The notes under the pieces: generated by a model
The model's database searches: none
Told to the model about the DNA's origin: nothing
The model's input: the letters and a program-made list of their open reading frames with translations, nothing else
Translations under genes and position numbers: made by a program
Shown: positions 1 to 20,213 of the stretch, piece after piece
Layout of the letters: every line of letters begins with the position of its first letter
How positions within the stretch are numbered: the stretch's first letter is position 1
Virus record (IMG/VR): IMGVR_UViG_2562617057_000011
Span: 1-46,003 of that record
Length of the DNA: 46,003 nt
Origin: a virus
Lineage: Duplodnaviria > Heunggongvirae > Uroviricota > Caudoviricetes
Strand: one strand, 5' to 3'

Positions 1-1314
1 CTAACTCACTGATTTTAATAAGCCTCTTGTGTCACTTTGGTGACCATGGGACATCATTGGGACATAATCTGCCAGCTTCTGATTCAGCATTGCGATCTGT
101 TCTGCATTGCTGTCAGTCATCCATGCTCCGTATACATTGAACACCATCTGGGCACTTGCATGCCCCATCTGGCTGGCAATGAAGCTTGGGTTTGCTCCGG
201 CAGATAATGACCAGCACGCATAAGTGTGTCGTGACTGGTATGCTTTCCGGTGCCTGATGCCCGCACGCTTAATGGCTGTTTCCCATGAGTCGCCAATGGA
301 ATCTACCTTGTAGATAAAACCTACCTGTTTGCTTTTTCTAACCACCTGGGGGTTAAATACGAAAGTACATTCATGATTCACTGAACGTCCATATTCACGT
401 AGTTGAACCTTGATGTGGTGCTGCTTACCCAGTCTTGTCATTTCAGCCTGATTTTTCAGGACACTGATAGCGGGCTGGATAAGATGCACAACCCTGTTTG
501 TACTTGCTTCAGTTTTAGGTAGAGTGAACTCACCGAGTTTCGTATAATTGCGCCTGATAGTAATAGTTCCTGCTTTCAGATCGATATCTTCCCAGGCCAG
601 GGAGACCAGTTCACCGTGACGCATTCCTGTGTACACAGCCAATGACCACAGGTTTTTCGTCTGCTGATGTCGGCAAGCATCTATCAGGCGAATAAATTCG
701 TCACGAGTTAGCGGATCTGGCTCTGCCCTGGCTCTTTTAAGAGGCTTAATTCCCTGGAAGGGATTTGCTTCTAAGTAACCGTGATCTGCAGCAAACTGAA
801 ACATTCCAGCGATTGTCGTCATGTAATAATTTACAGTAACGACGCTCCGTCCTTTTGCTGCTGCTTTGTTTTTCGTTGAATTCTGATACCCGGTCAGCAA
901 ATCTTTCCTGATATACAGCAATTCCTCTTTGGTTACCGATGACACCAGTCTGCCGCCTCCAATTTTCGGAACCATCGTTCTTGCAACGGATTCATAGCGA
1001 TTGAATGCATTTGCAGAGATTTCCATTCGTTTCAGATCCAGCCACTTTTCTTCAAGTTCCTTCACCGTAATTTCTTTTTTACTTACCCCAAAAGCCTGAA
1101 GGTTAGGGGAGTCAGGGAACTGTGCAGCATAATCAAAGCTTCCTGTGCGGATGGCAAAACATACCGATGTCCGCAGTTCCCCGGCGATCTTCCTGTTCTT
1201 GGCAGTGTCAGGGACACCAAGATTTTCCCTGACACGTTTACCTTTAAAATTAAACCAGATGCGTAATGTGCCGCCGTGGTTTTCGACGCCTGTTGGATAT
1301 TTGACTTTATCCAT
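1..1314 (-). CDS. int: phage tyrosine integrase (site-specific recombinase), 437 aa
   Basis: Complete minus-strand ORF with stop at 1-3; C-terminal catalytic-type R, H-x-x-R and Y residues; followed by an excisionase gene as in lambdoid int-xis modules. Confidence 0.95.
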   Translation of the reverse strand: MDKVKYPTGVENHGGTLRIWFNFKGKRVRENLGVPDTAKNRKIAGELRTSVCFAIRTGSFDYAAQFPDSPNLQAFGVSKKEITVKELEEKWLDLKRMEISANAFNRYESVARTMVPKIGGGRLVSSVTKEELLYIRKDLLTGYQNSTKNKAAAKGRSVVTVNYYMTTIAGMFQFAADHGYLEANPFQGIKPLKRARAEPDPLTRDEFIRLIDACRHQQTKNLWSLAVYTGMRHGELVSLAWEDIDLKAGTITIRRNYTKLGEFTLPKTEASTNRVVHLIQPAISVLKNQAEMTRLGKQHHIKVQLREYGRSVNHECTFVFNPQVVRKSKQVGFIYKVDSIGDSWETAIKRAGIRHRKAYQSRHTYACWSLSAGANPSFIASQMGHASAQMVFNVYGAWMTDSNAEQIAMLNQKLADYVPMMSHGHQSDTRGLLKSVS

Positions 1315-3489: not shown

Positions 3490-4320
3490 TTACTTAACCT
3501 GAATAAATGGTGTGTTGGCACCGCTGGTCATGTACTGCGGCAGTGTGCCGTTCCATTTATTGATGGCTTCCAGCTCCATAACACCGGGGTTCTGGCGCAG
3601 AGCTTCACCGCGTAAACGAATTGCATCGGCTTCGGCCTGGGCTTTTGTGCGAATCGCATCAGCCTGTCCGGCAGCTTCTGCACGCAGCATGTTGGCTTCT
3701 GCTTCGCGTTGTTTAACTTCCTGCTCGCGTTGCAGTGTTTTCTGGTTTGCCGTGACTTTGGCGTTAATGCTGTCGATAACGGTTGGTGGGTACTCTGGCT
3801 TACCCACATATGAGAGGCTCATTACCTGAATACCGATGGGTGTCATTTCTTCCTGGATGTCTTTTAGAGCGGCATCCAGTAATTCAGATTTACCGCCGTC
3901 AATAAATTTGTCGGTGGTCATTTTGCTGGCCAGCCGATTGAGTGCGTCGGCGATCTTCTGGCGCAGGTCGGTGTTGGTAATGTCATCCACGCCTTTGCGG
4001 TAAGTCTGAAACACCGTGGTAACTTTGGATGGATCAACTTTGTAGGCCACGCCGATGTGATAGCCGATGGTTGTGCCGTCACTCATCTGGAAACTGAACG
4101 GTTCATCGTAGGTCTTCATTTGCTTGAAGGTCGGGAAAATGTAAACTTCAGTATTCCAGCCAGTCCAGTAGCGACCAACACCGACCACTTCACCGACACC
4201 TTTGTCGTCGCCCAGTTTGTTGACTTTGATACCCACATTACCTGGTTCAACGCGATCGCAACCTACAAGTCCGAAGACAGCCAGACTGACCGCGAAAACA
4301 AGCGCAATTGTTTTTTTCAT
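3490..4320 (-). CDS. SPFH/band-7 (prohibitin-family) lipoprotein with coiled-coil C-terminus, 276 aa
   Basis: Signal peptide with lipobox LVGC; SPFH-like core; Ala/Gln/Glu/Arg-rich coiled-coil tail; ATGA overlap with the upstream small membrane ORF. Confidence 0.85.
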   Translation of the reverse strand: MKKTIALVFAVSLAVFGLVGCDRVEPGNVGIKVNKLGDDKGVGEVVGVGRYWTGWNTEVYIFPTFKQMKTYDEPFSFQMSDGTTIGYHIGVAYKVDPSKVTTVFQTYRKGVDDITNTDLRQKIADALNRLASKMTTDKFIDGGKSELLDAALKDIQEEMTPIGIQVMSLSYVGKPEYPPTVIDSINAKVTANQKTLQREQEVKQREAEANMLRAEAAGQADAIRTKAQAEADAIRLRGEALRQNPGVMELEAINKWNGTLPQYMTSGANTPFIQVK

Positions 4321-4505
4321 TTTTCCCTCCCGGGGAAAGAAAGACCCTTATAAATGGCATAAATGCAGGGCGGGGTCAGACACGCCAGAGCAAAGCCAGA
4401 AATCACTGCTACCGTATCCTTCATTGATATGAGGGCCGGAACGATTAATCCGTAAATACATGCGATAATTGCCAGTGATATAACTATTCTGAAATAAATG
4501 TTCAT
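4317..4505 (-). CDS. small two-helix membrane protein, 62 aa (ORF track extends to 4538 inside the IS end)
   Basis: Two hydrophobic segments; ATG at 4505 is exactly at the IS target-site duplication; translationally coupled to the SPFH gene. Confidence 0.5.
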   Translation of the reverse strand: MNIYFRIVISLAIIACIYGLIVPALISMKDTVAVISGFALACLTPPCIYAIYKGLSFPGREK

Positions 4506-4549
4506 GTGAGGTGTACTGGCAATAGCGGACACTACCATTTGTTCTTTTT

Positions 4550-5368
4550 TTAAGCAGCCATCTGATGATATTTTTCCCTGAAGGCTGCCGGGGAGATATT
4601 CCCCAGACGAGAGTGACGACGCTGACGATTGTAGAAAATCTCAATGTATTCCCGTATTACTGAGATGGCTTCATCCCGGTTATTAAAACGATAGTGGCTC
4701 AGGCTCTCATTTTTCAGCGTTCCCCAGAAGCTTTCCATCGGAGCGTTGTCGTAACAGTTACCTTTACGCGACATTGATGTTTTCAGACCAAACTGCTCCT
4801 GTATGACCCGGTAATCGTATGCGCAGTACTGTGAACCTCGATCAGAGTGGTGGATTAGCCCGGCAGGTGGGCGCTGGCTCCTGAGCGCCATAAACAGGGC
4901 TTTACCTGTCAGCTCTTTTGTCATGCGCTCTCCCATGGCGTAGCCGACAATTTCGCACGTATAAACATCTTTGATGCCAGCGAGGTACAACCATCCCTCC
5001 TGTGTGGCAACATACGTCAGGTCCGCCACCCAGACCTGATTTGGTGCTGTAGGAGCGAACGTCTGGTTCAGCAGATTTGGCGCAACTGGCAGATTGTGGT
5101 TCGAGTTCGTAGTCGCTCTGAACTTGCGTTTCTGCTTACAGCGTAGCCTTAGCTCCTTACGAAGACGTGCCAGTCGGTCACGACCAACGATGATGCCATT
5201 CTCTGCCAGCTCCGTCTGGAGCCGCCGGGTTCCATATGTTTCGCGAGTGCGGATATGTGCCACCTTAATCTCCAGTTTTAGCCGCTCATCACTTTGTTTT
5301 CTGTCTGAGGGTTCATGCTGTACCCAGTTGTAATAACCGCTCCTGGATACACCAAATACCTGACACAT
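4550..5368 (-). CDS. IS3-family transposase OrfB (integrase core; made as OrfAB by -1 frameshift)
   Basis: DDE-type integrase-like sequence typical of IS3-family OrfB; overlaps the orfA reading frame. Confidence 0.9.
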   Translation of the reverse strand: MCQVFGVSRSGYYNWVQHEPSDRKQSDERLKLEIKVAHIRTRETYGTRRLQTELAENGIIVGRDRLARLRKELRLRCKQKRKFRATTNSNHNLPVAPNLLNQTFAPTAPNQVWVADLTYVATQEGWLYLAGIKDVYTCEIVGYAMGERMTKELTGKALFMALRSQRPPAGLIHHSDRGSQYCAYDYRVIQEQFGLKTSMSRKGNCYDNAPMESFWGTLKNESLSHYRFNNRDEAISVIREYIEIFYNRQRRHSRLGNISPAAFREKYHQMAA

Positions 5369-8163: not shown

Positions 8164-8205
8164 GAGATGATACCCCAGTTACGAACTTTGTTTCATGGTA
8201 ACTAA

Positions 8206-8242
8206 GGTATCAAAGCATGGCAAGTAGTTTTTGATACTTTGG
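8206..8242. promoter_or_regulatory. OL-like operator region with repeated TTGATACTTTGG motif
   Basis: TTGATACTTTGG at 8231-8242 and an inverted copy GGTATCAAAG at 8206-8215 just downstream of cI; the same motif recurs upstream of cI. Confidence 0.5.
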
Positions 8243-8259
8243 TTTCTTTTTGTATCTGG

Positions 8260-8916
8260 TCAGAAAATATCCCACCTGGCATCAACCACAACACCTACTA
8301 TTTCGCAATCATTGTCCATTTCTATGATGGGATATTGTGGATTAAGGGGCTTTAGAAACGCCTTCCCCATTTCAGAAATATATTTTTTGAATGTTGCTTC
8401 ATTGGTGGATTTTTTTCTGGCGATGACGTAACACCCTGAAAAAACTTCTTTATCTGGATTGACAAGGATCGACATTCCTTCAGGAAATGTTATTCCTATA
8501 GGCGAAGTCATTGAGTCTCCGTGTACTTCCAGCCAGAAGCCCCTCTCACCAGCGTATTTTACAGAATGCCTCCAATTATCCTGATCATACATGTTGTAGT
8601 CATCACCTGCAGTTGCGAATAATCCTGCCTGAACCCAGTTAATTACAGGGTAAGAGTGTGCTGTGTCTCTCTGGGGACAGCTCTTAACATTATTTTCCCA
8701 ATACTTACCTTTTTCATCTCCGTTCTGAAGCCACTGCGGTGAACACTGCAGTGCCGCTGCGACTTTAAAAAGCGTGTCACCGTTGAAACTTTTTGTAAGA
8801 CCTTGCTCGGCTTTACTGATTGCAACTCTGGTGACCCCAGCTTTTTTAGCCAACGCATCTTGCGTTAACCCAGCTTTTTGTCGTGCGTTGATGAGGCGTT
8901 CACCTAAAGATTTCAT
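8260..8916 (-). CDS. cI: CI-type prophage repressor (XRE HTH plus S24 LexA-like peptidase domain), 218 aa
   Basis: N-terminal HTH, C-terminal S24 peptidase-like domain; ATG at 8916 with AAGGAG Shine-Dalgarno; divergent from a cro-like gene. Confidence 0.9.
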   Translation of the reverse strand: MKSLGERLINARQKAGLTQDALAKKAGVTRVAISKAEQGLTKSFNGDTLFKVAAALQCSPQWLQNGDEKGKYWENNVKSCPQRDTAHSYPVINWVQAGLFATAGDDYNMYDQDNWRHSVKYAGERGFWLEVHGDSMTSPIGITFPEGMSILVNPDKEVFSGCYVIARKKSTNEATFKKYISEMGKAFLKPLNPQYPIIEMDNDCEIVGVVVDARWDIF

Positions 8917-8938
8917 TTTTCTTCTCCTTTCATGGCTG

Positions 8939-8975
8939 CTGATACTAAAGTAACAGAATATCTTGATACTTTGGA
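8939..8975. promoter_or_regulatory. OR-like operator region (divergent promoter region between cI and cro)
   Basis: TTGATACTTTGG at 8964-8975 and TGATACTAAAG at 8939-8950 within the 111-bp cI-cro intergenic region. Confidence 0.55.
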
Positions 8976-9027
8976 TTCTCATGTTTAACATTCTTGGATA
9001 ACAGAGTATCCGGTGTGAGGCTAAAGA

Positions 9028-9601: not shown

Positions 9602-9714
9602 GTCGAACCTCCTTTGGTTCTTTTGTTTATAGGGATCAAAAGGATAACTGAAGGATGGTTCGGCACCAACAAGTACGAATGTGCGGAATCTTAAAAGAAT
9701 TTATCCGTAAGGAG

Positions 9715-10428
9715 ATGGCAGTGAACACCGCAATTTTTAACGACAAAGTATCCATGACCAGCGTTGAAATCGCAGAGCTGGTTGGAAGTCAACACGGCAA
9801 TGTCAGAATATCAATAGAGCGTCTGGCAAAACGCGGGGTGATTCAACTTCCTGCAATGCAAAAAGTTGAGAACGAACAATCATTTAGCCAAAACAAATTC
9901 ACAAACGCATATATTTTCGAAGGCGAACAAGGCAAACGCGACAGCATCATTGTCGTCGCACAACTTTGCCCGGAATTCACTGCCCGCCTGGTAGATCGTT
10001 GGCGCGAACTGGAAGAGCAGGTGCGCAAACCAATGAGCGAAATCGAAATGGTTGCCGCGATGGCTCTTGAAGCCGTTCGTCAGCAAAAACGCCTCGACAA
10101 GATGGAAGAAAAAGTCAGTCACGTTACTGAAACTGTCGAACAAATCAAAAGAGGCACCATCCGCGATGGTTATGCAGGCTACCGTCAGCTGGTGGCGAAA
10201 ACGGGTATGTCAGATGCGAAATGCCGCAATCTGGTGAACGCCTATCAAATTCCAACTGATACTCACGAATTTCTTACTCCGGACGGATTGTTGTCACGCC
10301 GCACAATTGTTGCAGTGGAACCGTTTATGGCTGCTTTCCATCGTATGATGAGCGAAGCGGAACCGAGAGGAACTCGTTGGTATCACCCGAAAATGGGGCT
10401 GTTCCAGGCGCTGGGCTGGCAGGGGTGA
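9715..10428 (+). CDS. Rha-family phage regulatory protein with C-terminal domain shared with the KilA-N protein, 237 aa
   Basis: N-terminal pRha-like segment (SVEIAELVGSQHGNVRISIERL); C-terminal ~130 aa paralogous to ORF 2697-3446; ATG at 9715 chosen, SD spacing is short. Confidence 0.75.
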   Translation: MAVNTAIFNDKVSMTSVEIAELVGSQHGNVRISIERLAKRGVIQLPAMQKVENEQSFSQNKFTNAYIFEGEQGKRDSIIVVAQLCPEFTARLVDRWRELEEQVRKPMSEIEMVAAMALEAVRQQKRLDKMEEKVSHVTETVEQIKRGTIRDGYAGYRQLVAKTGMSDAKCRNLVNAYQIPTDTHEFLTPDGLLSRRTIVAVEPFMAAFHRMMSEAEPRGTRWYHPKMGLFQALGWQG

Positions 10429-10645
10429 CGATGTTTACGGGTAATTTATGCAAGTCCTCAATCGCTGGTTCCGTGACGGAAGGGGGCGTCGTGTTCACGT
10501 TATACGCTGGGAGCCTGAAACACAGCGGGTTATTTATCTGCGTGATGGTTATCCATATGAATGTTTCAGCCCGTTGTGGTTGTTCAGGCGTGATTTTGTG
10601 GAGTGTGAAGCGCCGCCGGAATGACGGCACGGTATATACGAAAAA

Positions 10646-11005
10646 TTACGCCGCCTTGCCCAGCGTAAAATCAAAGTGGATGTCGTCATACGGGAATGAC
10701 GTTCCGCGCTCGCTTTTTTCCAGTAAACCGTTGCTGATGAGTGCGGTCACGTCAGTATGCACGCTTTTTACATCACGTCCAACCAGGGCTGCAATTTTTC
10801 GGATGGACATTTCTCCGGCACCAGTCATTGCCATCAGAATGTCCATGCGTTTTGGTGTCAGTACCTTATGCATCATTTGCCAGTCAGGAAATGAAATAAC
10901 GTTTTCTCTGGTTGCTTTTGCTCCGGTAGCTGCTTCCTGGAACGCAGACAGCACATCAGCCGTGAAATTATCCATTGACTCGATTCGGATTGTTACGGTT
11001 CTCAT
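10646..11005 (-). CDS. HTH/winged-helix regulator, putative antitoxin, 119 aa
   Basis: ATG at 11005 lies 1 nt after the upstream stop; C-terminal winged-helix-like segment; family not identified. Confidence 0.65.
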   Translation of the reverse strand: MRTVTIRIESMDNFTADVLSAFQEAATGAKATRENVISFPDWQMMHKVLTPKRMDILMAMTGAGEMSIRKIAALVGRDVKSVHTDVTALISNGLLEKSERGTSFPYDDIHFDFTLGKAA

Positions 11006-11006
11006 G

Positions 11007-11294
11007 TCAGATACCTCTGCGGATGGATTTAACGTCAGCCAGAAAATCAGCGAGCAGTTGTTCAATGGTGACAAAGCTGGTGCTGACTTCCTGACTACCA
11101 ATGTGTTTGTGATCGCCTTTACCCCGTTCGTTGTCGTAACGCATCACACACATGCCATCAACGACATAAGCCATGCTGTATTTGTAGTTGTGCTGGCTAC
11201 CCAATACAGCAGGCTCCACTTCCCATATGCGGATTCGTATGTATTCAGATTCACCGAGATGACGGATGAACTGTTTATACAGTCTGGATGGCAT
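11007..11294 (-). CDS. small protein, putative toxin of a toxin-antitoxin-like pair, 95 aa
   Basis: ATG at 11294 with GAGGA Shine-Dalgarno; tightly coupled to the downstream HTH gene; family not identified. Confidence 0.6.
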   Translation of the reverse strand: MPSRLYKQFIRHLGESEYIRIRIWEVEPAVLGSQHNYKYSMAYVVDGMCVMRYDNERGKGDHKHIGSQEVSTSFVTIEQLLADFLADVKSIRRGI

Positions 11295-11375
11295 TTAAAG
11301 CTTCCTCTGGTTCTTGTTGTAAACAATAACAACAAGGCTTCGCGTTGTCCACAGCTACAACATTTTGATATTGAT

Positions 11376-11648
11376 TCTGCAAGTCCGGGACGTTACACTG
11401 TTCCGGCACCTTATAAAACGGGTGCCGGGATTTGCACCCCGGAATTGATCAAGGCGATATATGACGCGCCAGCGTCTTTTTTATCGTCCACGCTCACGCA
11501 CGCCAGAATTATGGTGGGCTGGGCAGGGGAGCCGAAAGGCTCGCCGGTTTCCTTGATCGCCGGTAGTGCAAACCCTGTTCAGTCCGCCACCAGCGAGATT
11601 TGCACCTCCGGTGGTGGAAGTATTTCACCGATCAAGGAGGCTGCCATT
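11376..11648 (+). repeat. structured RNA leader, unit 1 of 3
   Basis: Hairpin 11403-11428, terminator 11463-11482, GAAA-tetraloop hairpin 11529-11542, helix GTGCAAA 11567-11573 with TTTGCAC 11599-11605, second helix CCACCA 11587-11592 with TGGTGG 11610-11615, SD AAGGAGG 11634-11640. Confidence 0.7.
11463..11482 (+). terminator. intrinsic terminator inside leader unit 1
   Basis: GACGC-GCCA-GCGTC hairpin followed by TTTTTT. Confidence 0.55.
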
Positions 11649-11720
11649 ATGGCTACGATCCCAGTTTCCCCATTCCTCAAAATCGAAGTCGTCAACGGTA
11701 AGGCCGTTACTACATCTCTT
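11649..11720 (+). pseudogene. Rha-family gene remnant (first ~24 codons only)
   Basis: ATG at 11649 with MATIP..KIEVVNGKAVTTSL start matching the Rha copies at 12015 and 12671, then diverges; the frame stays open only by running into the next unit. Confidence 0.4.
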
Positions 11721-11829
11721 TTCGGATATCTCAAACTGTTGCGCCTTGCTGGTGTTCCGGGTTATATTTCTCGCGTTGCTGTAAATCCAGCAACCGGGCT
11801 TCGCATCCCGAAACATCACACAGGGCTGA

Positions 11830-11852
11830 CACGCCATAAGCGTGTTTTTTTG
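11830..11852 (+). terminator. intrinsic terminator inside leader unit 2
   Basis: ACACGC-CATAA-GCGTGT hairpin followed by TTTTTT. Confidence 0.55.
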
Positions 11853-12014
11853 TCTACGCACGTCTATTCAATGGCGGCTCAGATGGGAGCTTCTTCGGAA
11901 GCGCCGGTTTTCCCTTGTGTGTCCGGTAATGCGAATCCTGTCTGGGCTGCCACCAATCATGGTTTCGCATCCGTGGGTGGTAGCTGTAAAGCACACACAC
12001 AAGGGGCTGTCACC
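11853..12014 (+). promoter_or_regulatory. structured RNA leader, unit 2 of 3
   Basis: UUCG-tetraloop hairpin 11890-11903, helix ATGCGAA 11930-11936 with TTCGCAT 11965-11971, second helix GCTGCCACC 11947-11955 with GGTGGTAGC 11977-11985. Confidence 0.65.
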
Positions 12015-12377
12015 ATGACTACCACCACTACTCACCCATTCCTCAAAATCGAAGTCGTCAACGGCAAGGCCGTTATTTTCTCTTTGCATGTGGCCTGCCA
12101 CTTTAAGCGCATGCACCAGAACATCGTCGACAAAATCGAGTATCTGAACTGCTCGCGCGAATTTTTTACCCGCAATTTCATACCGGGTACTTACCACATC
12201 TATGACGACTCTCTGCGTGGTTATTACATCACCCTTGATGGTCTGATGCTGCTTCAGCTTGGGTTAAGTCTGCGCACAATGCGGTACTACGAGAGTTGCA
12301 TTGAAGCGTTCCATGAGGCTGAAACCGTCCAGGTGCATTCCGCTTTCCGTCGTCATCAACGGGAGGTGCACCTATGA
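12015..12377 (+). CDS. Rha-family regulatory protein, short form, 120 aa
   Basis: ATG at 12015 after leader unit 2; N-terminal FLKIEVVNGKAV motif shared with the other copies; Rha-like central segment. Confidence 0.6.
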   Translation: MTTTTTHPFLKIEVVNGKAVIFSLHVACHFKRMHQNIVDKIEYLNCSREFFTRNFIPGTYHIYDDSLRGYYITLDGLMLLQLGLSLRTMRYYESCIEAFHEAETVQVHSAFRRHQREVHL

Positions 12378-12384
12378 TCCGCTA

Positions 12385-12670
12385 CCTGAATATTGATTCT
12401 GCAATTCCGGGACGTTACACTGTCTCTGCACCTTATAAAGCGGGTGTCGGGCGTGAGAACCCGGAATTCACCAAAGCGCACAACCGCGCTCTTGCGGTTT
12501 TTTTGTGTCATGAGCAGCATTACGCCCAAATTATGGTGGGGCGTGCAGGGCCAACTTCGGTTGGGCCGGGTTCTTTGGTGACCGGTTTCTCACCCCTGTA
12601 CGTCTCACCACCTATTGCCGTGAGAAGCTTTGGTGGTGAGTTATTAAAAATCACCAAAGAGGCTGCCATC
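12385..12670 (+). repeat. structured RNA leader, unit 3 of 3
   Basis: Terminator 12483-12505, UUCG hairpin 12551-12564, helix TTCTCAC 12587-12593 with GTGAGAA 12620-12626, second helix CTCACCACC 12604-12612 with GGTGGTGAG 12632-12640, SD 12656-12662. Confidence 0.7.
12483..12505 (+). terminator. intrinsic terminator inside leader unit 3
   Basis: ACCGC-GCTCTT-GCGGT hairpin followed by a T7 run; stem differs from unit 1 by compensatory changes. Confidence 0.55.
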
Positions 12671-13234
12671 ATGGCTACGATCCCAACCCTCACTCAACCT
12701 GAAATTGCCATCGTTGATGGTCAGGCTGTTACTTCATCCCTGGCTGTTGCCAACTTCTTCTCTAAACGTCATGACGATGTTCTGAAAAAGATCCGCATTT
12801 TGGATTGTTCTCCAGAGTTTTGTGCCCGCAATTTTGCGGAGACATCAATTTTGGTACGCCAGCCCAACGGTGGTACTCGCAAACTTCCCTGCTACCAAAT
12901 CACCCGCGACGGCTTCGCCTTCCTTGCTATGGGCTTCACTGGTAAACGTGCCGCCCGGTTCAAAGAGGCATACATCAATGCCTTTAACCAGATGGAGAGG
13001 AGCTTATCAGGAGCTGGTGCGGCTGACATGTCATCTGTCGCACAAAACGCCAGAGGCGTATACCTGCATTTGCGTGAAATCCATCAAATCTGGACAAGCC
13101 AGCTTTACCCAATGCTTAAGGCCGTTGAATCTCCGCTGGCTGGCAAACTGTACGACCGTGTAGGTGATGCTGTTTTTGGCGCTGCACTTGTTGATTCCAG
13201 GCTGAATGGTTCTGACAAGGAGGTTCGCCCATGA
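12671..13234 (+). CDS. Rha-family phage regulatory protein, 187 aa
   Basis: ATG at 12671 with AAAGAGG Shine-Dalgarno; canonical Rha-like segment (ITRDGFAFLAMGFTGKRAARFKEAYINAF). Confidence 0.8.
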   Translation: MATIPTLTQPEIAIVDGQAVTSSLAVANFFSKRHDDVLKKIRILDCSPEFCARNFAETSILVRQPNGGTRKLPCYQITRDGFAFLAMGFTGKRAARFKEAYINAFNQMERSLSGAGAADMSSVAQNARGVYLHLREIHQIWTSQLYPMLKAVESPLAGKLYDRVGDAVFGAALVDSRLNGSDKEVRP

Positions 13235-13425
13235 TTAGTTACGAAATCATCATCTCCACTACGGAATACAGAAACGATGTATCAGTTCGCACGGATGTAT
13301 CTGTCTGGCACCGTCGCTATAAATCCAGAAAAACGGCGGAACTGAAAGCGGCAGAGATGTGTGAAATCATCGCAATGAAAGGCAGTCCGGTTAAATACAT
13401 CACAACGGCGGAGGTGCGTCCATGA
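13231..13425 (+). CDS. hypothetical small protein, 64 aa
   Basis: ATGA overlap with the upstream stop; GGAGG Shine-Dalgarno. Confidence 0.5.
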   Translation: MISYEIIISTTEYRNDVSVRTDVSVWHRRYKSRKTAELKAAEMCEIIAMKGSPVKYITTAEVRP

Positions 13426-13646
13426 TTCGTCGAGTTGTGAATTCTCTGTATCACCGATACAACCGTTGCCCCCGTGTGGGGCAGTGGTTTGCCACCAGCA
13501 ACGGTCATGTTCTGCGGGTTTGCCTGGTCAGTACCGAAAGCCAGAAAGTCGTGTGTGAATTACTGGGGCGTAACTACACCATTAGCTACCCACTGGCGGT
13601 GTTTCAGTCCGGGAAAATGTTTAAACGCTTGGGAGGTGCCGTGTGA
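13422..13646 (+). CDS. hypothetical small protein, 74 aa
   Basis: ATGA overlap; GGAGGTG Shine-Dalgarno. Confidence 0.5.
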   Translation: MIRRVVNSLYHRYNRCPRVGQWFATSNGHVLRVCLVSTESQKVVCELLGRNYTISYPLAVFQSGKMFKRLGGAV

Positions 13647-14554
13647 GTAGCAAAATTCTCGGTAACGTCTGGGATGCATGTGCCGCGTATGGAGTCAAAG
13701 GTGCAAAGCTGATGATCATGGCGCGTCTGGCTGATTATTCGAATGATGACGGGGTGTGCTATCCCGGTGTTGAAACCATATGCCGACAGCTTGGGTTGGG
13801 AGAAAGCACAGTAAGAACAGCAATTTCAGAGCTGGAGGCTGATGGCTGGCTGACGCGTCAGTCACGCCGCAAAGGTAATCGTAATACGTCAAATCTTTAT
13901 CATCTGAATGCTGATCGGCTTGAACAGCTTGCCAGAACGGAGCGGGATAAGATTGCTGAACTGAAACACAAACGCAGACTTTCATCATTATGTGACCCGT
14001 CAGATTCTGAACCTTCAAAATCTGAACCGTCAGAATCTGAATGTTCAGGTGTGTTTGACCCTTCAGATTCTGGCAAAAAAACGGTTTTGACCCTTCAGAA
14101 TCTGGACCCAGATCCACAAGGTTTAAAACATGATCCGCAAGTAAATTCAAAACATGATCCGCAAGATATTGGCGCATCCGCTGACGCGTCTGCACCAGCG
14201 CGCTCTGCCCGACAGGAATATTCACCGGAATTTGAACAGGCCTGGCAGGAATATCCCAAACGTGCTGGTGGTAATTCCAAGTCGGCAGCCTTCAAAGCCT
14301 GGAAAACCCGAATCAGGGAAGGTGTGACACCAGAAACCATGCTCAATGGTGTGAAACGCTATGCCGCCTGGGTACGTGCTACAGGAAATACCGGCACACA
14401 GTTCGTGAAGCAGGCAGCGACGTTCTTTGGCCCCGATCGGCATTTTGACGAATCCTGGCAACAGCCAGCAGCTCCCGGAGGTGGGCGGGGCAAAAGCCTC
14501 CCGATCTCGGGATTCAGTGAGCAGGACTACGGCTCAACGAACTTTAACTGGTGA
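13643..14554 (+). CDS. replication initiator / replisome organiser (O-like), 303 aa
   Basis: N-terminal winged-helix region, acidic Ser/Asp/Pro-rich linker, conserved C-terminal domain; iteron repeats inside the coding sequence; followed by loader and helicase genes. Confidence 0.75.
   Translation: MSSKILGNVWDACAAYGVKGAKLMIMARLADYSNDDGVCYPGVETICRQLGLGESTVRTAISELEADGWLTRQSRRKGNRNTSNLYHLNADRLEQLARTERDKIAELKHKRRLSSLCDPSDSEPSKSEPSESECSGVFDPSDSGKKTVLTLQNLDPDPQGLKHDPQVNSKHDPQDIGASADASAPARSARQEYSPEFEQAWQEYPKRAGGNSKSAAFKAWKTRIREGVTPETMLNGVKRYAAWVRATGNTGTQFVKQAATFFGPDRHFDESWQQPAAPGGGRGKSLPISGFSEQDYGSTNFNW
13994..14165. repeat. iteron array, putative replication origin inside the initiator gene
   Basis: Four copies of GACCC(G/T)TCAGA(A/T)TCTG-like repeats at about 13994, 14027, 14056 and 14089, then a direct repeat AAAACATGATCCGCAAG at 14125 and 14149. 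Confidence 0.6.
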
Positions 14555-14571
14555 TTTTGTGGGGTGTGAAA

Positions 14572-15459
14572 ATGACTAATTTCCTGAACAAACAACACAT
14601 GCAACACGACAAAGCGCAGTTACTCAACCGCAGGGCTGACCTGGAAGAGGAACTGGCATTTGTCCGTGGCGGAAAGCGTCCGTGGCGCTGTGAGCATTGG
14701 GTGCAAAGTGCTGAGACGGTGTCCTGCGGGAAACACGGAAAATATACACGCTATGTGCTGACGGGCCCGGATGTCAGGGGGAAAGCTGTCAAACGGGTAT
14801 CCGGTTGCCTGTCCTGCCTCAGTGACGAGCTGGACCGCGTGTATGACGAATTACGCGACCTGAAGGTTTGTGAATTACTCGATCAGGCCGGTATTGCCCG
14901 CCGGTTTCAGGACTGTGAGTTTGAGAATTATCTGGCGGTGAATACTGACGCACAGAAAAACCTTGAAGCCTGTCAGCGCTATGCCGCTTCCTGGAAGAAA
15001 TGTCTCGCTGCAGGCACCAGCATGGTCATGATTGGCAATTGTGGTACCGGGAAAAATCACCTGGCTGTATCAATGGCAAAAAATATTATTCGCCACCACC
15101 AGGCAACCATAGAAATCACGGATGTGATGCGGCTTACCCGTGCGGTGAAAAATACCTGGCGCCACAACTCTGAGCGCACTGACGATGAAGTGATTAATCA
15201 TTTTGCATCACTGGATCTGCTTATCATCGATGAGGTTGGTGTGCAGTTCGGTACGCCTGCGGAGATAACCATCCTGCAGGAAATCATAAATGCACGTTAC
15301 GAAAGCGTTTTACCGACAATTTTGATCAGCAACCTGACGTTTGAACAGCTTAAAGAATCCATTGGTGAACGGATTGTGGATCGCGTTACTGATGGTGGGC
15401 GTAACTACCTGGCGTTTGGTTGGGAAAGCTACCGTGCGCATATCAGAGGTGTGGCATGA
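14572..15459 (+). CDS. DnaC-like helicase loader (IstB-type AAA+ ATPase), 295 aa
   Basis: Walker A GNCGTGKNHLA and Walker B LLIIDEVG motifs; Cys-rich N-terminal region; ORF track begins at a GTG at 14551. Confidence 0.85.
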   Translation: MTNFLNKQHMQHDKAQLLNRRADLEEELAFVRGGKRPWRCEHWVQSAETVSCGKHGKYTRYVLTGPDVRGKAVKRVSGCLSCLSDELDRVYDELRDLKVCELLDQAGIARRFQDCEFENYLAVNTDAQKNLEACQRYAASWKKCLAAGTSMVMIGNCGTGKNHLAVSMAKNIIRHHQATIEITDVMRLTRAVKNTWRHNSERTDDEVINHFASLDLLIIDEVGVQFGTPAEITILQEIINARYESVLPTILISNLTFEQLKESIGERIVDRVTDGGRNYLAFGWESYRAHIRGVA

Positions 15460-16856
15460 CAAACCCGACAAATCCGGCGTGGCGTAATGATGACCTGGAA
15501 GGTGCAGTGATTGGCGCGTTTTTTCTGCGTGGGGCTGATCCGGAAGTGATGGATATTCTGGCCACGCTTCCGGCGGATGTATTTTTTGTACGCCAGTACC
15601 GGGATATTTACGCAGGGATTTGTAGACAGGCCCGTGTATCCGGTGTGATTGACCCCGTACTGCTGTGCAATGAGATGCCGGAACTAGCCCCGGTGATTAC
15701 CGACACCGGACGTAAAACCTGGGTGAAGTCTTCACTGGAGCACTATGTTGCAGCGTTACGGCGCAATGCTGCATTGCGTGATGCAGAAAAAACACTGAAT
15801 GAGGCGCTGCAGAAATTACGTGATGCGCATACCTGTGAAGCAGCTGAAGATGCCCTGAAGGATGCGCACAATATGATGGCCTCATTGTCGACGGAAAAGG
15901 GCGTCATTCAGCCGGTACATATTGATGATGTGCTTCCGGAAGTGGTTGAGCGTGTTGAATGCCGGAATCAGGGGCTGGAGAAATCCAGGACGTTGATGAC
16001 CGGTATTGATGAACTGGACGCAAAAACAGGCGGTATGGAGCCCGGAGACCTGGTATTCATTGCCGCCCGTCCTTCGATGGGGAAAACCGAACTTGCGCTG
16101 GACATCATCGACAAGGTGACTGAGCAGGGGCATGGTGTGCTTCTGTTCACCATGGAGATGGCGAACATCCAGATTGGTGAACGTATGGTGTCTGCGGCTG
16201 GAGGGATGCCAGTATCACGCCTGAAATCTGTGGCTCACTTTGAAGATGAAGACTGGGCGCGTTTCTCACAAGGGGTGGGGCGGATGACCGGGCGCAATAT
16301 CTGGATGGTGGACCAGGCGAACCTGACCATTGATGAGATATGCGCAACAACGAAACACCATCTGATTAAACATCCGGAAACGGCGCTGGTGGTGGTTGAT
16401 TATCTCGGGCTGATAAAAACCCGAACCACGGGGCGTCATGACCTTGCCGTGGGTGAAATCTCAAAGGGGCTTAAAGGCCTGGCAAAATCCGGTGGTTTTC
16501 CGTTGATTGCGCTGAGCCAGCTCTCCCGCGGTGTGGAGTCCAGACCCAATAAACGTCCCATGAACTCAGACCTGAAAAATTCCGGAGAAATAGAGGCGGA
16601 TGCAGACATCATTCTGATGCTTTACAGGGATGAAGTGTACAACCCGGATACGCAGGCCAGGGGCATCGCAGAAATCAATATCACGAAACAACGTAACGGT
16701 TCTCTGGGAACGATTTACCGGCGTTTTTATAACGGACATTTTCTGCCTGTGGACCAGGAAAGTGCACGGGTGCTTTCCACTCCCATGAAGCCCGGCAATC
16801 CGCGCAGATACAGTAATAAACGAACTGACAGCAGTAAGATGGAGCGTTTCTTTTGA
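15456..16856 (+). CDS. DnaB-family replicative DNA helicase, 466 aa
   Basis: RecA-like helicase core (ARPSMGKTELAL, DYLGLI motifs); ATG at 15456 overlaps the upstream stop; GAGGTG Shine-Dalgarno. Confidence 0.9.
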   Translation: MTNPTNPAWRNDDLEGAVIGAFFLRGADPEVMDILATLPADVFFVRQYRDIYAGICRQARVSGVIDPVLLCNEMPELAPVITDTGRKTWVKSSLEHYVAALRRNAALRDAEKTLNEALQKLRDAHTCEAAEDALKDAHNMMASLSTEKGVIQPVHIDDVLPEVVERVECRNQGLEKSRTLMTGIDELDAKTGGMEPGDLVFIAARPSMGKTELALDIIDKVTEQGHGVLLFTMEMANIQIGERMVSAAGGMPVSRLKSVAHFEDEDWARFSQGVGRMTGRNIWMVDQANLTIDEICATTKHHLIKHPETALVVVDYLGLIKTRTTGRHDLAVGEISKGLKGLAKSGGFPLIALSQLSRGVESRPNKRPMNSDLKNSGEIEADADIILMLYRDEVYNPDTQARGIAEINITKQRNGSLGTIYRRFYNGHFLPVDQESARVLSTPMKPGNPRRYSNKRTDSSKMERFF

Positions 16857-19903: not shown

Positions 19904-19979
19904 GGCCCTTTAGCTCAGTGGTGAGAGCGAGCGACTCATAATCGCCAGGTCGCTGGTTCAAGTCCAGCAAGGGCCACCA
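19904..19979 (+). tRNA. tRNA with anticodon CAT (Ile2-like, lysidine-type; Met not excluded), CCA encoded
   Basis: 76-nt cloverleaf folded by hand; very similar to E. coli ileX as recalled; anticodon loop CTCATAA. Confidence 0.85.
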
Positions 19980-19980
19980 A

Positions 19981-20054
19981 CCACCACTAGCTCATCCGGA
20001 TAGAGCATCAACCTTCTAAGTTGACGGTGCGAGGTTCGAGTCCTCGGTGGTGGG
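19981..20054 (+). tRNA. tRNA-Arg, anticodon TCT
   Basis: Cloverleaf with acceptor CCACCAC/GTGGTGG, anticodon loop CTTCTAA, T-loop TTCGAGT; no encoded CCA. Confidence 0.8.
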
Positions 20055-20059
20055 CCAGC

Positions 20060-20135
<76 letters not shown>

Positions 20136-20138
20136 TAT

Positions 20139-20213
<75 letters not shown>

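Follow-up and report, generated by a model that had tools for sequence, protein, structure and literature searches.

The window, that is, the whole stretch of 46,003 nucleotides that was analysed, contains three successive structured units on one strand. They lie within the early-right operon of a lambdoid prophage, with the cI/Rha region on one side and the replication genes on the other. The order of elements is the same in each unit: a weak promoter-like site, an IsrK/seqA leader of about 77 nt with an intrinsic terminator, a tRNA-like C4/CI RNA of about 88 nt, and a target region that runs to a ribosome-binding site and an ATG, which in unit 1 opens a Rha-like stub. The features, all on the plus strand, are as follows.

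11371-11399 (+): unit 1 promoter-like site TTGATT-17 nt-TACACT, read from the sequence, with a putative promoter function
11406-11482 (+): IsrK-1, two hairpins, equivalent of P4 seqA and P1 a1/b1 (RF01394, 65.2 bits)
11428-11437 and 11447-11454 (+): decoy copies of the C4 target sites in IsrK-1, GGATTTGCAC and GATCAAGG, from complementarity to C4-1
11463-11482 (+): intrinsic terminator of IsrK-1, stem GACGC/GCGTC at 11463/11472 (consensus scan)
11507-11594 (+): C4-1, with a 17-bp closing stem, GAAA tetraloop hairpin (11529), hairpin 2 and CCACC tail (11587) (RF01695, 83.5 bits)
11548-11559 (+): C4-1 loop L, TTTCCTTGATCG
11564-11572 (+): C4-1 junction J, TAGTGCAAA, containing GTGCAAA at 11566
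11599-11651 (+): unit 1 target region (inverted repeats, one 100% complementary; covariation of L, J and K)
11599-11611 (+): J target TTTGCAC(CTCCGG), with a second TTTGCAC at 11431 in IsrK-1
11610-11618 (+): K element GGTGGTGGA, GGTGG at 11610, pairing with the C4-1 3' strand at 11583-11591
11629-11638 (+): L target CGATCAAGGA, overlapping the Shine-Dalgarno sequence; ATG at 11649
11649-11736 (+): Rha-like gene stub (direct repeat, alignment, ORF list)
11739-11768 (+): unit 2 promoter-like site TTGCGC-18 nt-TATATT, aligned with the sites of units 1 and 3, putative function
11775-11850 (+): IsrK-2 (RF01394, 62.2 bits; inverted repeat)
11797-11806 and 11817-11825 (+): IsrK-2 decoy sites GGCTTCGCAT and CACACAGGG, the latter pairing with a 1-nt bulge
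11828-11850 (+): IsrK-2 terminator, stem ACACGC/GCGTGT at 11829/11840 (consensus scan)
11867-11957 (+): C4-2, tetraloop hairpin at 11889, CCACC at 11950 (RF01695, 74.2 bits)
11908-11922 (+): C4-2 loop L, TTTTCCCTTGTGTGT
11927-11936 (+): C4-2 junction J, TAATGCGAAT, with ATGCGAA at 11929
11961-12017 (+): unit 2 target region (inverted repeats, one 100% complementary; covariation)
11961-11970 (+): J target GGTTTCGCAT, TTCGCAT at 11964 and also at 11800 in IsrK-2
11976-11984 (+): K element GGTGGTAGC, GGTGG at 11976
11995-12005 (+): L target ACACACAAGGG, overlapping the Shine-Dalgarno sequence; ATG at 12015
12015-12377 (+): small Rha-like ORF, 120 aa (Pfam Phage_pRha, 29.3 bits)
12374-13234 (+): full-length 'Ash-Rha' ORF, 286 aa, containing unit 3; equivalent of P4 eta (ORF list)
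12393-12421 (+): unit 3 promoter-like site TTGATT-17 nt-TACACT, homologous to that of unit 1, putative function
12428-12504 (+): IsrK-3 (RF01394, 61.3 bits; inverted repeat 87% complementary over 15 nt)
12450-12464 and 12468-12476 (+): IsrK-3 decoy sites GGCGTGAGAACCCGG and TCACCAAAG
12482-12504 (+): IsrK-3 terminator, stem ACCGC/GCGGT at 12483/12494 (consensus scan)
12529-12615 (+): C4-3, tetraloop hairpin at 12551, CCACC at 12608 (RF01695, 83.4 bits)
12570-12581 (+): C4-3 loop L, GTTCTTTGGTGA
12586-12593 (+): C4-3 junction J, TTTCTCAC, with TTCTCAC at 12587, the J core being identical to that of P4 CI RNA
12620-12673 (+): unit 3 target region (inverted repeat 100% complementary; pair lists verified base by base; covariation)
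12620-12626 (+): J target GTGAGAA, second copy at 12453 in IsrK-3
12632-12640 (+): K element GGTGGTGAG, GGTGG at 12632, pairing with 12604-12612
12651-12660 (+): L target TCACCAAAGA, overlapping the Shine-Dalgarno sequence; ATG at 12671
13231-16856 (+): downstream genes (ORF list, Pfam)

The genes that follow the three units differ in completeness. The unit 1 stub comprises about 24 first codons homologous to the start of the unit 2 gene, after which the reading frame stays open and leads into unit 2; the same arrangement recurs in Escherichia coli N96 (locus L001). The first-pass annotation of this DNA had each unit end at the start codon of a Rha-family gene, but unit 1 does not lead into a complete one; since unit 1 would control only the stub, it could be a remnant. 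The 120-aa ORF of unit 2 scores just below the Phage_pRha cut-off (29.3 against 29.9 bits, E = 1.3e-6), and its stop codon shares the ATGA at 12374 with the start that follows. This is the start of the 286-aa ORF, which combines the overlap with a good Shine-Dalgarno sequence (GGGAGGTG at 12361-12368), matches Pfam Phage_ASH over residues 15-98, and has a homologue in L001 that PGAP (NCBI) annotates likewise; its internal start at 12671, the equivalent of the P4 kil start, yields a 187-aa Rha protein (Phage_pRha, 94.6 bits). The subsequent genes are joined through 4-nt stop/start overlaps at 13231, 13422, 13643, 14551, and 15456. They comprise two small ORFs and the genes of an HTH_36 replication-initiator-like protein, of a DnaC/IstB-like ATPase, and of a DnaB helicase, and together they are probably the cargo that the putative upstream control would reach by polarity. 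The same prophage also carries a LexA-type cI repressor (Pfam). A search for icd/ant genes downstream of the C4 units found none, the downstream ORFs matching only Phage_pRha and, weakly, P22_AR_C; thus, the locus is a C4 module rather than a P1-type immI operon.

The identity of the RNA elements could be established with the Rfam covariance models. The C4 antisense RNA family (RF01695) matches three times, with 83.5, 74.2, and 83.4 bits in units 1, 2, and 3, against a gathering score of 45 bits, each match covering the full length of the model (positions 1-87), and isrK (RF01394) likewise matches three times, with 65.2, 62.2, and 61.3 bits, against a gathering score of 50; the E-values range from 5e-15 to 9e-13 for C4 and from 8e-12 to 8e-11 for isrK. 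In each unit, the isrK match precedes the C4 match by 16-24 nt, in the expected order and on the expected strand, and the C4 core pattern occurs three times in the window but not once in 100 shuffles. With the covariance model R1, made in the present analysis, C4-2 scores 87.7 bits. The first-pass annotation had likened the units to antisense control of antirepressor genes, had considered them not assignable to a known family, and had proposed an Rfam search that included C4; that search recovered all six matches, so the units do belong to described families. Its likeness to P1 c4 and P4 CI holds (the same Rfam families and, for P4, the same layout), whereas P22 sar, for which there is no match at the gathering level in the window and whose kinship is further contradicted by the transcription of the present RNAs in the same direction as their targets, is not a relative. 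We conclude, with a probability of roughly 85%, that the three "leader" units represent tandem copies of the IsrK-C4 phage immunity module known from P1, P7, P4, and Gifsy-1.

Comparison with the described systems shows what is shared and what is not. IsrK and C4 are homologues of P4 seqA and CI, respectively, and are present in lambdoid prophages, too (PMC3632133). The P4 immunity region (seqA - CI RNA - seqC within the nested eta/kil ORFs) is likewise matched by both Rfam models, isrK before C4, and shares with the window the L, J, and K complementarities with the L target on the Shine-Dalgarno sequence, the start context GAGGCTGCCATCATGGCTAC, an open frame through seqA and CI that is in phase with the downstream start, and a J core, TTCTCAC/GTGAGAA, identical to that of unit 3; the P4 promoter lies inside a long ORF, and translational coupling from upstream leads to read-through that is insensitive to immunity (PMC10111431). 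P4, however, has one such module, followed by Kil and then by the epsilon/alpha operon of the satellite, whereas the window has three in series, followed by Rha-family genes and then by the HTH initiator, DnaC-like, and DnaB genes. The immI region of P1/P7 (a1 b1 - c4 - a2 b2 - icd - ant) contains an RNA of the same family, RF01695, with two recognition elements, each of which has an upstream and a downstream target copy, one downstream target occluding the ribosome-binding site, and the heteroimmunity of these phages stems from a few loop nucleotides that, together with co-varying targets, set the specificity (PMC5320573, PMC7313666). The a'/b' loops of C4 and its processing by RNase P have been described as well (PMC5320573). 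P1 differs from the window in its icd/ant genes, its plasmid prophage state, and its single module, against Rha-family genes, a chromosomal lambdoid prophage, and three modules.

Another described system is the Gifsy-1 isrK - STnc1160/orf45 - anrP locus of Salmonella, which, judging from its published description, shares the lambdoid context with the window. Gifsy-1 IsrK is transcribed from a promoter of its own, its terminator is leaky, and the read-through RNA contains a C4-like segment across which an ORF is translated (PMC4825925). The start of this ORF, orf45, at nt 107 matches the conserved AUG of the AUUAUGG motif at the C4 5' end, IsrK shows complementarity to the L/J region of C4, and an antirepressor-like gene comes next (PMC4825925). 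Again, there is a single module instead of three, and orf45 stops where anrP starts, in an AUGA overlap, whereas in the window, the frame continues in phase into the Rha ORF. A megablast search of the phage collection with a Gifsy-like unit (L118) gave no match. The modules themselves are, accordingly, already known, and the basic picture drawn from P1, P4, and Gifsy-1 is unchanged; what is slightly out of the ordinary is the occurrence of three copies in series with differing pairing specificities in one lambdoid prophage, a modest variant. Within the literature searchable here, we found no paper describing tandem C4/IsrK arrays.

All the motifs quoted in the first-pass annotation (terminator stems, tetraloop hairpins, 7-mers, CCACC, and GGTGG) are present where it had placed them, and the terminators of all three units were recovered by the consensus scan, but several of the structural elements have to be redrawn. 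The sequences of C4-1 and C4-3 alone fold as predicted, into a long closing stem around two hairpins, and the C4 RNAs have AU|GG at the 5' end and a CCA-like tail, the sequence prerequisites for RNase P processing. The recognition elements are the loop of hairpin 2 (L) and a single-stranded junction (J), each complementary to one site just downstream and to one decoy copy inside IsrK. A hairpin carrying CCACC in its loop, as originally drawn, was rejected on the strength of the Rfam model and the fold, because CCACC belongs to the 17-bp closing stem, as its 3' strand and tail; what had been taken for a 7-bp helix is the contact between the C4 junction and its target, although the proposed CCACC/GGTGG contact does covary, as the alternative pairing K. 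The earlier drawing also lacked the closing stem, hairpin 2, and the contact that the loop of hairpin 2 makes with the Shine-Dalgarno region. The second, upstream copy of the helix strand that it reported does exist and corresponds to the decoy target inside IsrK (as in P1 a1/b1 and P4 seqA), and the terminated small RNA that it envisaged as a carrier of the competing strand is most readily identified, from the RF01394 matches and the terminators, with IsrK.

An alignment of 57 distinct units, drawn from further phages and genomes, supports these pairings: compensatory changes are found in it, and the proposed check by homologue covariation gave a strong signal. For all helices together, pairing stands at 89%, both sides change in 44 of the 60 pairs, and the covariation score is 0.42; shuffles score 0.18 and slid partners no more than 0.13. 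The C4 closing stem (both sides changing in 12 of 17 pairs) and hairpin 1 (5 of 5) are paired in 95-97% of the cells; for the IsrK decoy contacts, pairing amounts to 84% and the score to 0.62, while shuffles give 0.19; and the K helix, formed by the C4 3' strand with K, is 87% paired, with changes on both sides in 7 of 9 pairs.

Complementarity is accompanied by specificity. In all three units, L is perfectly complementary to the Shine-Dalgarno region over 10-11 nt, and the L target covers the Shine-Dalgarno sequence; the complementarity of J to its targets extends over 7-13 nt. The cognate L-target duplexes have energies between -15.0 and -19.9 kcal/mol, compared to -3.1 to -12.2 kcal/mol for the non-cognate combinations of the three units, and among 59 distinct units, the longest perfect L-target run averages 8.7 nt for cognate and 4.5 nt for non-cognate pairs. 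For J, the duplex energies of the short segments from the three units do not cleanly separate cognate from non-cognate partners, unlike the run-length and covariation tests in the larger family, which did. A search of the whole window for extra L or J targets returned only the cognate sites and short matches at the chance level. Across the family, 32 L variants and 24 J variants combine in 41 ways, indicating a modular specificity code.

How might such an array function? How the RNAs would be transcribed, processed by RNase P, and act in trans, and what termination and biological outcome would follow, is extrapolated here from P1, P4, and Gifsy-1. The promoter-like sites are correctly placed with respect to the starts of the isrK matches but are weak (8 of 12 matches), and a sigma-70 consensus scan reported none, the unit 1 site, with its 8/12, falling below the threshold of that scan. 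In unit 1, the -10 hexamer ends 7 nt before the isrK match; unit 3 retains the site 1022 nt further on, within a direct repeat of 77% identity over 115 nt. Their candidate role as promoters follows two precedents, the promoter of isrK in Gifsy-1 (PMC4825925) and the one that lies inside eta in P4 (PMC10111431). C4 RNA would be made from transcripts that read through the IsrK terminator; in the lysogen, it would block initiation at the Rha start codons at 11649, 12015, and 12671, and the untranslated RNA would then be terminated, so that the translationally coupled replication genes would stay off. The short IsrK RNA, or the IsrK segment in cis, could compete for C4 and thus reverse the block, a competition that has been demonstrated experimentally for Gifsy-1 (PMC4825925). 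Ribosomes arriving from upstream, for example, via the ATGA overlap at 12374, might melt the structures and read through, as the frame through IsrK and C4 that is kept open would permit, by a route insensitive to immunity such as that described for P4 eta (PMC10111431). Because the L and J elements differ and each is fitted to its own targets, the three units should act as separate specificities. The most likely function of the array is, then, antisense control of the translation and, by polarity, the transcription of Rha and the coupled replication genes. The regulation may be mainly C4 repression, in the style of P1 and P4, or IsrK-mediated activation, in the style of Gifsy-1, and the physiological output may differ from that in the known systems because the downstream genes are of the Rha family rather than P1 icd/ant or the P4 alpha operon.

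The same pairings could, in principle, serve a purely cis-acting leader switch, in which the unprocessed mRNA leader toggles between alternative structures without the need for a free, trans-acting C4. The states of such a switch, namely, IsrK with C4 L/J, the C4 fold, C4 L/J with the downstream sites, and the C4 3' strand with K, would set ribosome access and termination. The minimum free energy and centroid folds of whole read-through transcripts do use such mutually exclusive pairings: in unit 1, C4 L/J is bound to its downstream targets, and in the centroid of unit 3, to IsrK; the K helix covaries even though the C4 3' strand is buried in the mature C4 fold, which points to a structure of the precursor; and the alternative structures A and B have been shown experimentally for Gifsy-1 (PMC4825925). 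Nevertheless, we consider an exclusively cis-acting switch unlikely, given that the homologous RNA of P1/P7 and P4 is a processed, stable immunity factor acting in trans (PMC5320573, PMC10111431, PMC3632133), that the short IsrK of Gifsy-1 also acts in trans (PMC4825925), and that the 41 L/J combinations fit phage self/non-self discrimination, for which a purely cis-acting switch has no obvious need. The cis and trans modes are not mutually exclusive.

Turning from the single module to the array, one has to ask whether all three units matter, or whether the array is the decaying debris of tandem duplication and recombination in which function persists in unit 3 alone, the one followed by a complete Rha gene. 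Of 5426 complete E. coli genomes, 1141 contain similar DNA. Loci with tandem arrays are in the minority: about 5 were counted among some 50 viral contigs with C4, and about 4 among some 60 genome loci (the first collection pattern was loose, and about half of the 120 viral loci it gathered had no C4 by the covariance model); this scarcity, together with the 24-codon stub of unit 1 and the sub-threshold Rha-like ORF of unit 2, is what degeneration would look like. Yet, all three units retain full-score C4 and isrK matches, perfect L-target complementarity, and an open frame, and E. coli N96 keeps the three-unit layout, stub included, at only 83% identity, with different L/J specificities in units 1 and 3, each matched to its own targets, unlike what neutral decay would produce. 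We therefore regard the debris scenario as improbable.

A further facet of the modules is that they can be read as protein. The leader frame is open and in phase with the downstream start in all three units, the ORF at 10377-12377 crossing units 1 and 2 and that at 12374-13234 crossing unit 3; the first-pass annotation had this right for units 1 and 3 but missed unit 2. Of 60 units in the family, 44 have no stop over about 250 nt in the +1 frame, counted from the C4 start, compared to 4 for each of the two remaining frames; in 33 of 57 distinct units, the leader frame is fused in phase to a Rha ORF. The three leader translations match Pfam Phage_ASH (PF10554) with 47.4, 34.2, and 24.5 bits, and homologous E. 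coli regions are annotated by PGAP as 'ash family protein'. Nevertheless, protein-type, codon-periodic conservation, by which PF10554 would qualify as a real domain, was tested for and not found: variability by codon position is flat in the leader (0.77/0.81/0.77), with no third-position excess, in contrast to the clear excess in the adjacent Rha coding sequence (0.46/0.38/0.98), in agreement with the earlier suggestion of RNA-level selection. In P4, the Ash match falls on an obsolete 'cI protein' ORF overlapping the CI RNA, and the epsilon derepression protein matches PF25738, not Ash. The authors of the Gifsy-1 study found that orf45 is translated and that its nucleotides are conserved while its amino acids vary (PMC4825925). 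Thus, although the open frames, the Ash matches, the well-formed start at 12374, and the translation of orf45 would all suit a mainly protein-coding unit, an N-terminal 'Ash' domain of Rha-family regulators with the RNA structure secondary, this is very improbable in view of the flat codon profile, substitutions that compensate across base pairs, a covariance-model E of about 1e-15, the P4 ORF lying over CI RNA, and the variable amino acids of orf45. These observations support selection on the leader of the IsrK-C4 module at the level of RNA rather than protein; it is likely that the passage of ribosomes through the frame matters, and the peptide sequence does not, and the conservation behind the PF10554 family appears to be at the RNA level.

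On top of the identification of the IsrK-C4 array, a broader scenario can be sketched, if only tentatively, in which the array is a multi-specificity cassette directed against other phages and P4-like satellites, the 'Ash' frame and the ATGA overlap form a ribosome relay, and the 'Ash' family is a translated RNA family. Under the first component, several C4 RNAs would silence incoming or co-resident phages and satellites that share any of the specificities; the J core of unit 3 is that of P4. Under the second, translation entering the first unit from upstream would bypass all the locks together and, as a corollary, the 'Ash' family of Pfam and PGAP would be stop-free only for the passage of ribosomes.

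The findings bear on annotation as well as on prophage biology. RNAs of this kind are hidden beneath CDS calls of 'ash family protein' or 'Rha family protein', and a survey of P4-like satellites took the Ash Pfam model as a marker of epsilon (PMC8628076), a choice that is at odds with the match of P4 epsilon to PF25738. A combinatorial RNA code for self/non-self discrimination among enterobacterial prophages and satellites is suggested by the arrays, together with the 41 combinations of L and J, and this putative code is situated directly upstream of the replication genes.

The three tandem units at about 11371-12673 represent no new class of RNA but three pairs of C4 and isrK family members laid out like the immunity region of phage P4. 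The first-pass annotation could not assign its three tandem structured leaders to a known family and proposed a covariance search with the C4 family included; when the entire window was scanned with Rfam at gathering thresholds, each unit yielded one member of each family:

11406-11482, plus strand: IsrK-1, Rfam RF01394, 65.2 bits, above the gathering threshold
11507-11594, plus strand: C4-1, Rfam RF01695, 83.5 bits, above the gathering threshold
11775-11850, plus strand: IsrK-2, RF01394, 62.2 bits, above threshold
11867-11957, plus strand: C4-2, RF01695, 74.2 bits, above threshold
12428-12504, plus strand: IsrK-3, RF01394, 61.3 bits, above threshold
12529-12615, plus strand: C4-3, RF01695, 83.4 bits, above threshold

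The isrK match lies 16-24 nt upstream of the C4 match in all three units. The tandem units stand, by motif search as well as by these matches, and reading the sequence at 10800-13800 located every element previously listed at its given position. With three matches to the C4 core pattern in the window and none in 100 shuffles, the finding is beyond chance, yet within two curated RNA families. The layouts of P1/P7, a1 b1 - c4(a' b') - a2 b2, and of P4, seqA - CI(seqB) - seqC, are the same (PMC5320573, PMC7313666, PMC3632133, PMC10111431), and P4 itself has both Rfam matches, an identical start context and all three complementarities, here denoted L, J and K.

Rfam alignments and folds revise the structure described earlier. 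The tetraloop hairpin is indeed hairpin 1 of C4, but the 17-bp closing stem, the 3' strand of which is the "CCACC-type strand", and hairpin 2 had been overlooked. The pairing of the "7-bp helix" holds, with its 5' strand actually located in J, the single-stranded junction that connects hairpin 2 to the closing stem (cores GTGCAAA, ATGCGAA and TTCTCAC in units 1-3). As claimed, this strand has two alternative partners, one just downstream of C4 and the other within hairpin 2 of IsrK, which correspond to the inverted repeats I5/I18, I21/I20 and I2. Also missed was L, the loop of C4 hairpin 2, which can pair along 10-11 nt with the Shine-Dalgarno region that precedes the next ATG and has counterpart copies within IsrK at 11447, about 11817 and 12468:

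11550-59 with 11629-38: L contact of unit 1, 100% complementary
11912-22 with 11995-12005: L contact of unit 2, 100% complementary
12572-81 with 12651-60: L contact of unit 3, 100% complementary
11610-11618, 11976-11984 and 12632-12640: K elements, the third covarying contact

The units of the window differ from one another in both L and J, and the predicted L duplexes are more stable for cognate (-15.0 to -19.9 kcal/mol) than for off-diagonal combinations (-3.1 to -12.2 kcal/mol).

The compensatory changes noted within the window extend to the whole family. C4-bearing loci were gathered from IMG/VR, together with E. coli N96, and confirmed with a covariance model made from six C4 sequences, giving an alignment of 57 distinct whole units. 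Across the IsrK and C4 helices and the downstream L and J contacts, 89% of the cells are paired, 44 of 60 pairs have changed on both sides, and covariation is 0.42, compared to 0.18 for shuffled and at most 0.13 for slid partners. The upstream decoy contacts of IsrK with L and J are paired in 84% of the cells (covariation 0.62 vs 0.19 shuffled). Without any alignment, too, L matches its own target over longer stretches: the mean length of the longest perfect run is 8.7 nt in cognate combinations, compared with 4.5 nt in non-cognate ones. The 32 variants of L and 24 of J occur in 41 combinations, so the two elements vary independently of each other, in the manner of a specificity code with two parts. 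The J core of the P4 CI RNA (TTCTCAC/GTGAGAA) is that of unit 3 (12586-12593), whereas the L loops differ; judging from this shared half-site, partial cross-talk between the window prophage and P4-like satellites could occur.

The CCACC/GGTGG contact of the first-pass annotation is the K helix, in which the final 9 nt of C4, CC tail included, pair with an element of the GGTGGTGAG type that lies about 17 nt further downstream. It, too, covaries, with 87% of the cells paired, 7 of 9 pairs changed on both sides, and covariation of 0.27 (0.15 shuffled, at most 0.10 slid). Compensatory change is visible by eye in the variants GCTATCGCC/GGCGATAGC, in P4 and locus L049, and CCATCACC/GGTGATGG, in locus L072. 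The K helix and the outer portion of the C4 closing stem are competing structures, and formation of the former would expose the conserved AUG at the C4 5' end. The first AUG of Gifsy-1 orf45 (nt 107) matches this AUG, which lies within an AUUAUGG motif; the second, 12 nt after it, is present in a Salmonella-like unit (L118).

In none of the three units does a stop codon interrupt the frame that crosses IsrK and C4, and this frame is in phase with the ATG that follows. Of 60 related units, 44 keep it open for about 250 nt, compared with 4 for each of the other two frames; in 33 of the 57 distinct units it continues without a stop into the gene downstream, in the same phase. Translated, the leaders match Pfam Phage_ASH (PF10554), and PGAP labels homologous DNA "ash family protein". 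Nevertheless, the selection at the RNA level previously proposed is supported: variability by codon position is flat in the leader (0.77/0.81/0.77), in contrast to the usual third-position excess in the adjacent Rha coding region (0.46/0.38/0.98). The best-fitting reading is that translation through the leader matters and the peptide sequence does not, a logic established for P4 eta/kil (PMC10111431) and Gifsy-1 orf45 (PMC4825925).

The three-unit layout, with a stub of 24 codons behind unit 1, recurs in E. coli N96, where identity is 83%; units 1 and 3 there carry different L/J sets, each matching its own targets, which argues against neutral decay. Arrays make up about 7-10% of C4-bearing loci, as estimated from two small samples, viral loci and representative genomes:

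L059: three units, 656 nt apart
L006, L029, L032: two units each
L136 (Pectobacterium), L167 (Pseudomonas), L214, L173 (Buttiauxella): arrays in representative genomes
L173 (Buttiauxella MAG), 4203-4624, minus strand: three C4 matches within 420 nt

Throughout the arrays examined, every unit is contained in a separate Ash-Rha-type ORF, whose phase is the same each time and which overlaps the next. The Buttiauxella array is of a different kind from that of the window; its C4 matches at 4447-4535 and 4536-4624 sit back to back, as in a tRNA array, with no genes between. The literature that could be searched yielded no account of tandem C4/IsrK arrays.

The window is a lambdoid prophage:

1-1314, minus strand: integrase
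4550-5368, minus strand: IS-type transposase (rve integrase core and HTH_21), in the left arm
8260-8991, minus strand: LexA-type cI repressor
9655-10428: first Rha gene
10377-12377, plus strand: 666-codon open frame, antisense to the TumE/HTH pair and continuing through units 1 and 2
10646-11101, minus strand: HVO_A0114-type HTH gene (PF25212)
11007-11294, minus strand: TumE toxin gene (PF20126), overlapping the HTH gene
12060-12074: terminator-like hairpin AACGGCAAGGCCGTT, with a T-rich run after it, 45 nt into the unit-2 Rha-like ORF
12374, 13231, 13422, 13643, 14551, 15456: six stop/start overlaps in succession, each of 4 nt (ATGA or GTGA)
19904-20210: four clustered tRNA genes, downstream of the replication region

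Separating the first Rha gene from the array, the TumE and HTH genes form a convergent, toxin-antitoxin-like pair; its place is taken by a DUF4222 gene in E. coli N96. We found no convincing start codon for the full-length frame entering unit 1, the upstream part of which is probably an accidental antisense ORF. The hairpin at 12060-12074, with a homologous sequence in the unit-1 stub (11694-11708), could be an attenuator or just a by-product of coding for the conserved VVNGKAV.

The overlaps join the unit-2 ORF, the unit-3 Ash-Rha ORF, two small ORFs, an HTH initiator-like gene, a DnaC-like ATPase and DnaB, so that a translational block at a Rha start could propagate to the replication genes. 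We infer that, in the lysogen, weak internal promoters (candidates are TTGATT-17-TACACT in units 1 and 3, and TTGCGC-18-TATATT in unit 2) would give terminated IsrK and read-through precursors, to be processed into C4. C4 would then mask the site of ribosome binding at each Rha start, and the untranslated RNA would be terminated, keeping the coupled replication genes silent, while IsrK would compete for C4 in cis or in trans, and ribosomes that come into the long frame from its upstream side would override the block. In predicted folds of whole read-through transcripts, it is precisely these competing pairings that form.

Three points are modestly new: an array whose units have three different specificities, the covarying K helix, and evidence that what underlies the "Ash" protein family is translated RNA from which stop codons are kept out. 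In P4, the Ash match falls on the obsolete "cI protein" ORF (8168-8584, minus strand), which overlaps the CI RNA, and epsilon matches another family, PF25738. A published survey of P4-like satellites that lists PF10554 as an epsilon marker (PMC8628076) may, in fact, have detected the CI/seqA immunity region instead.
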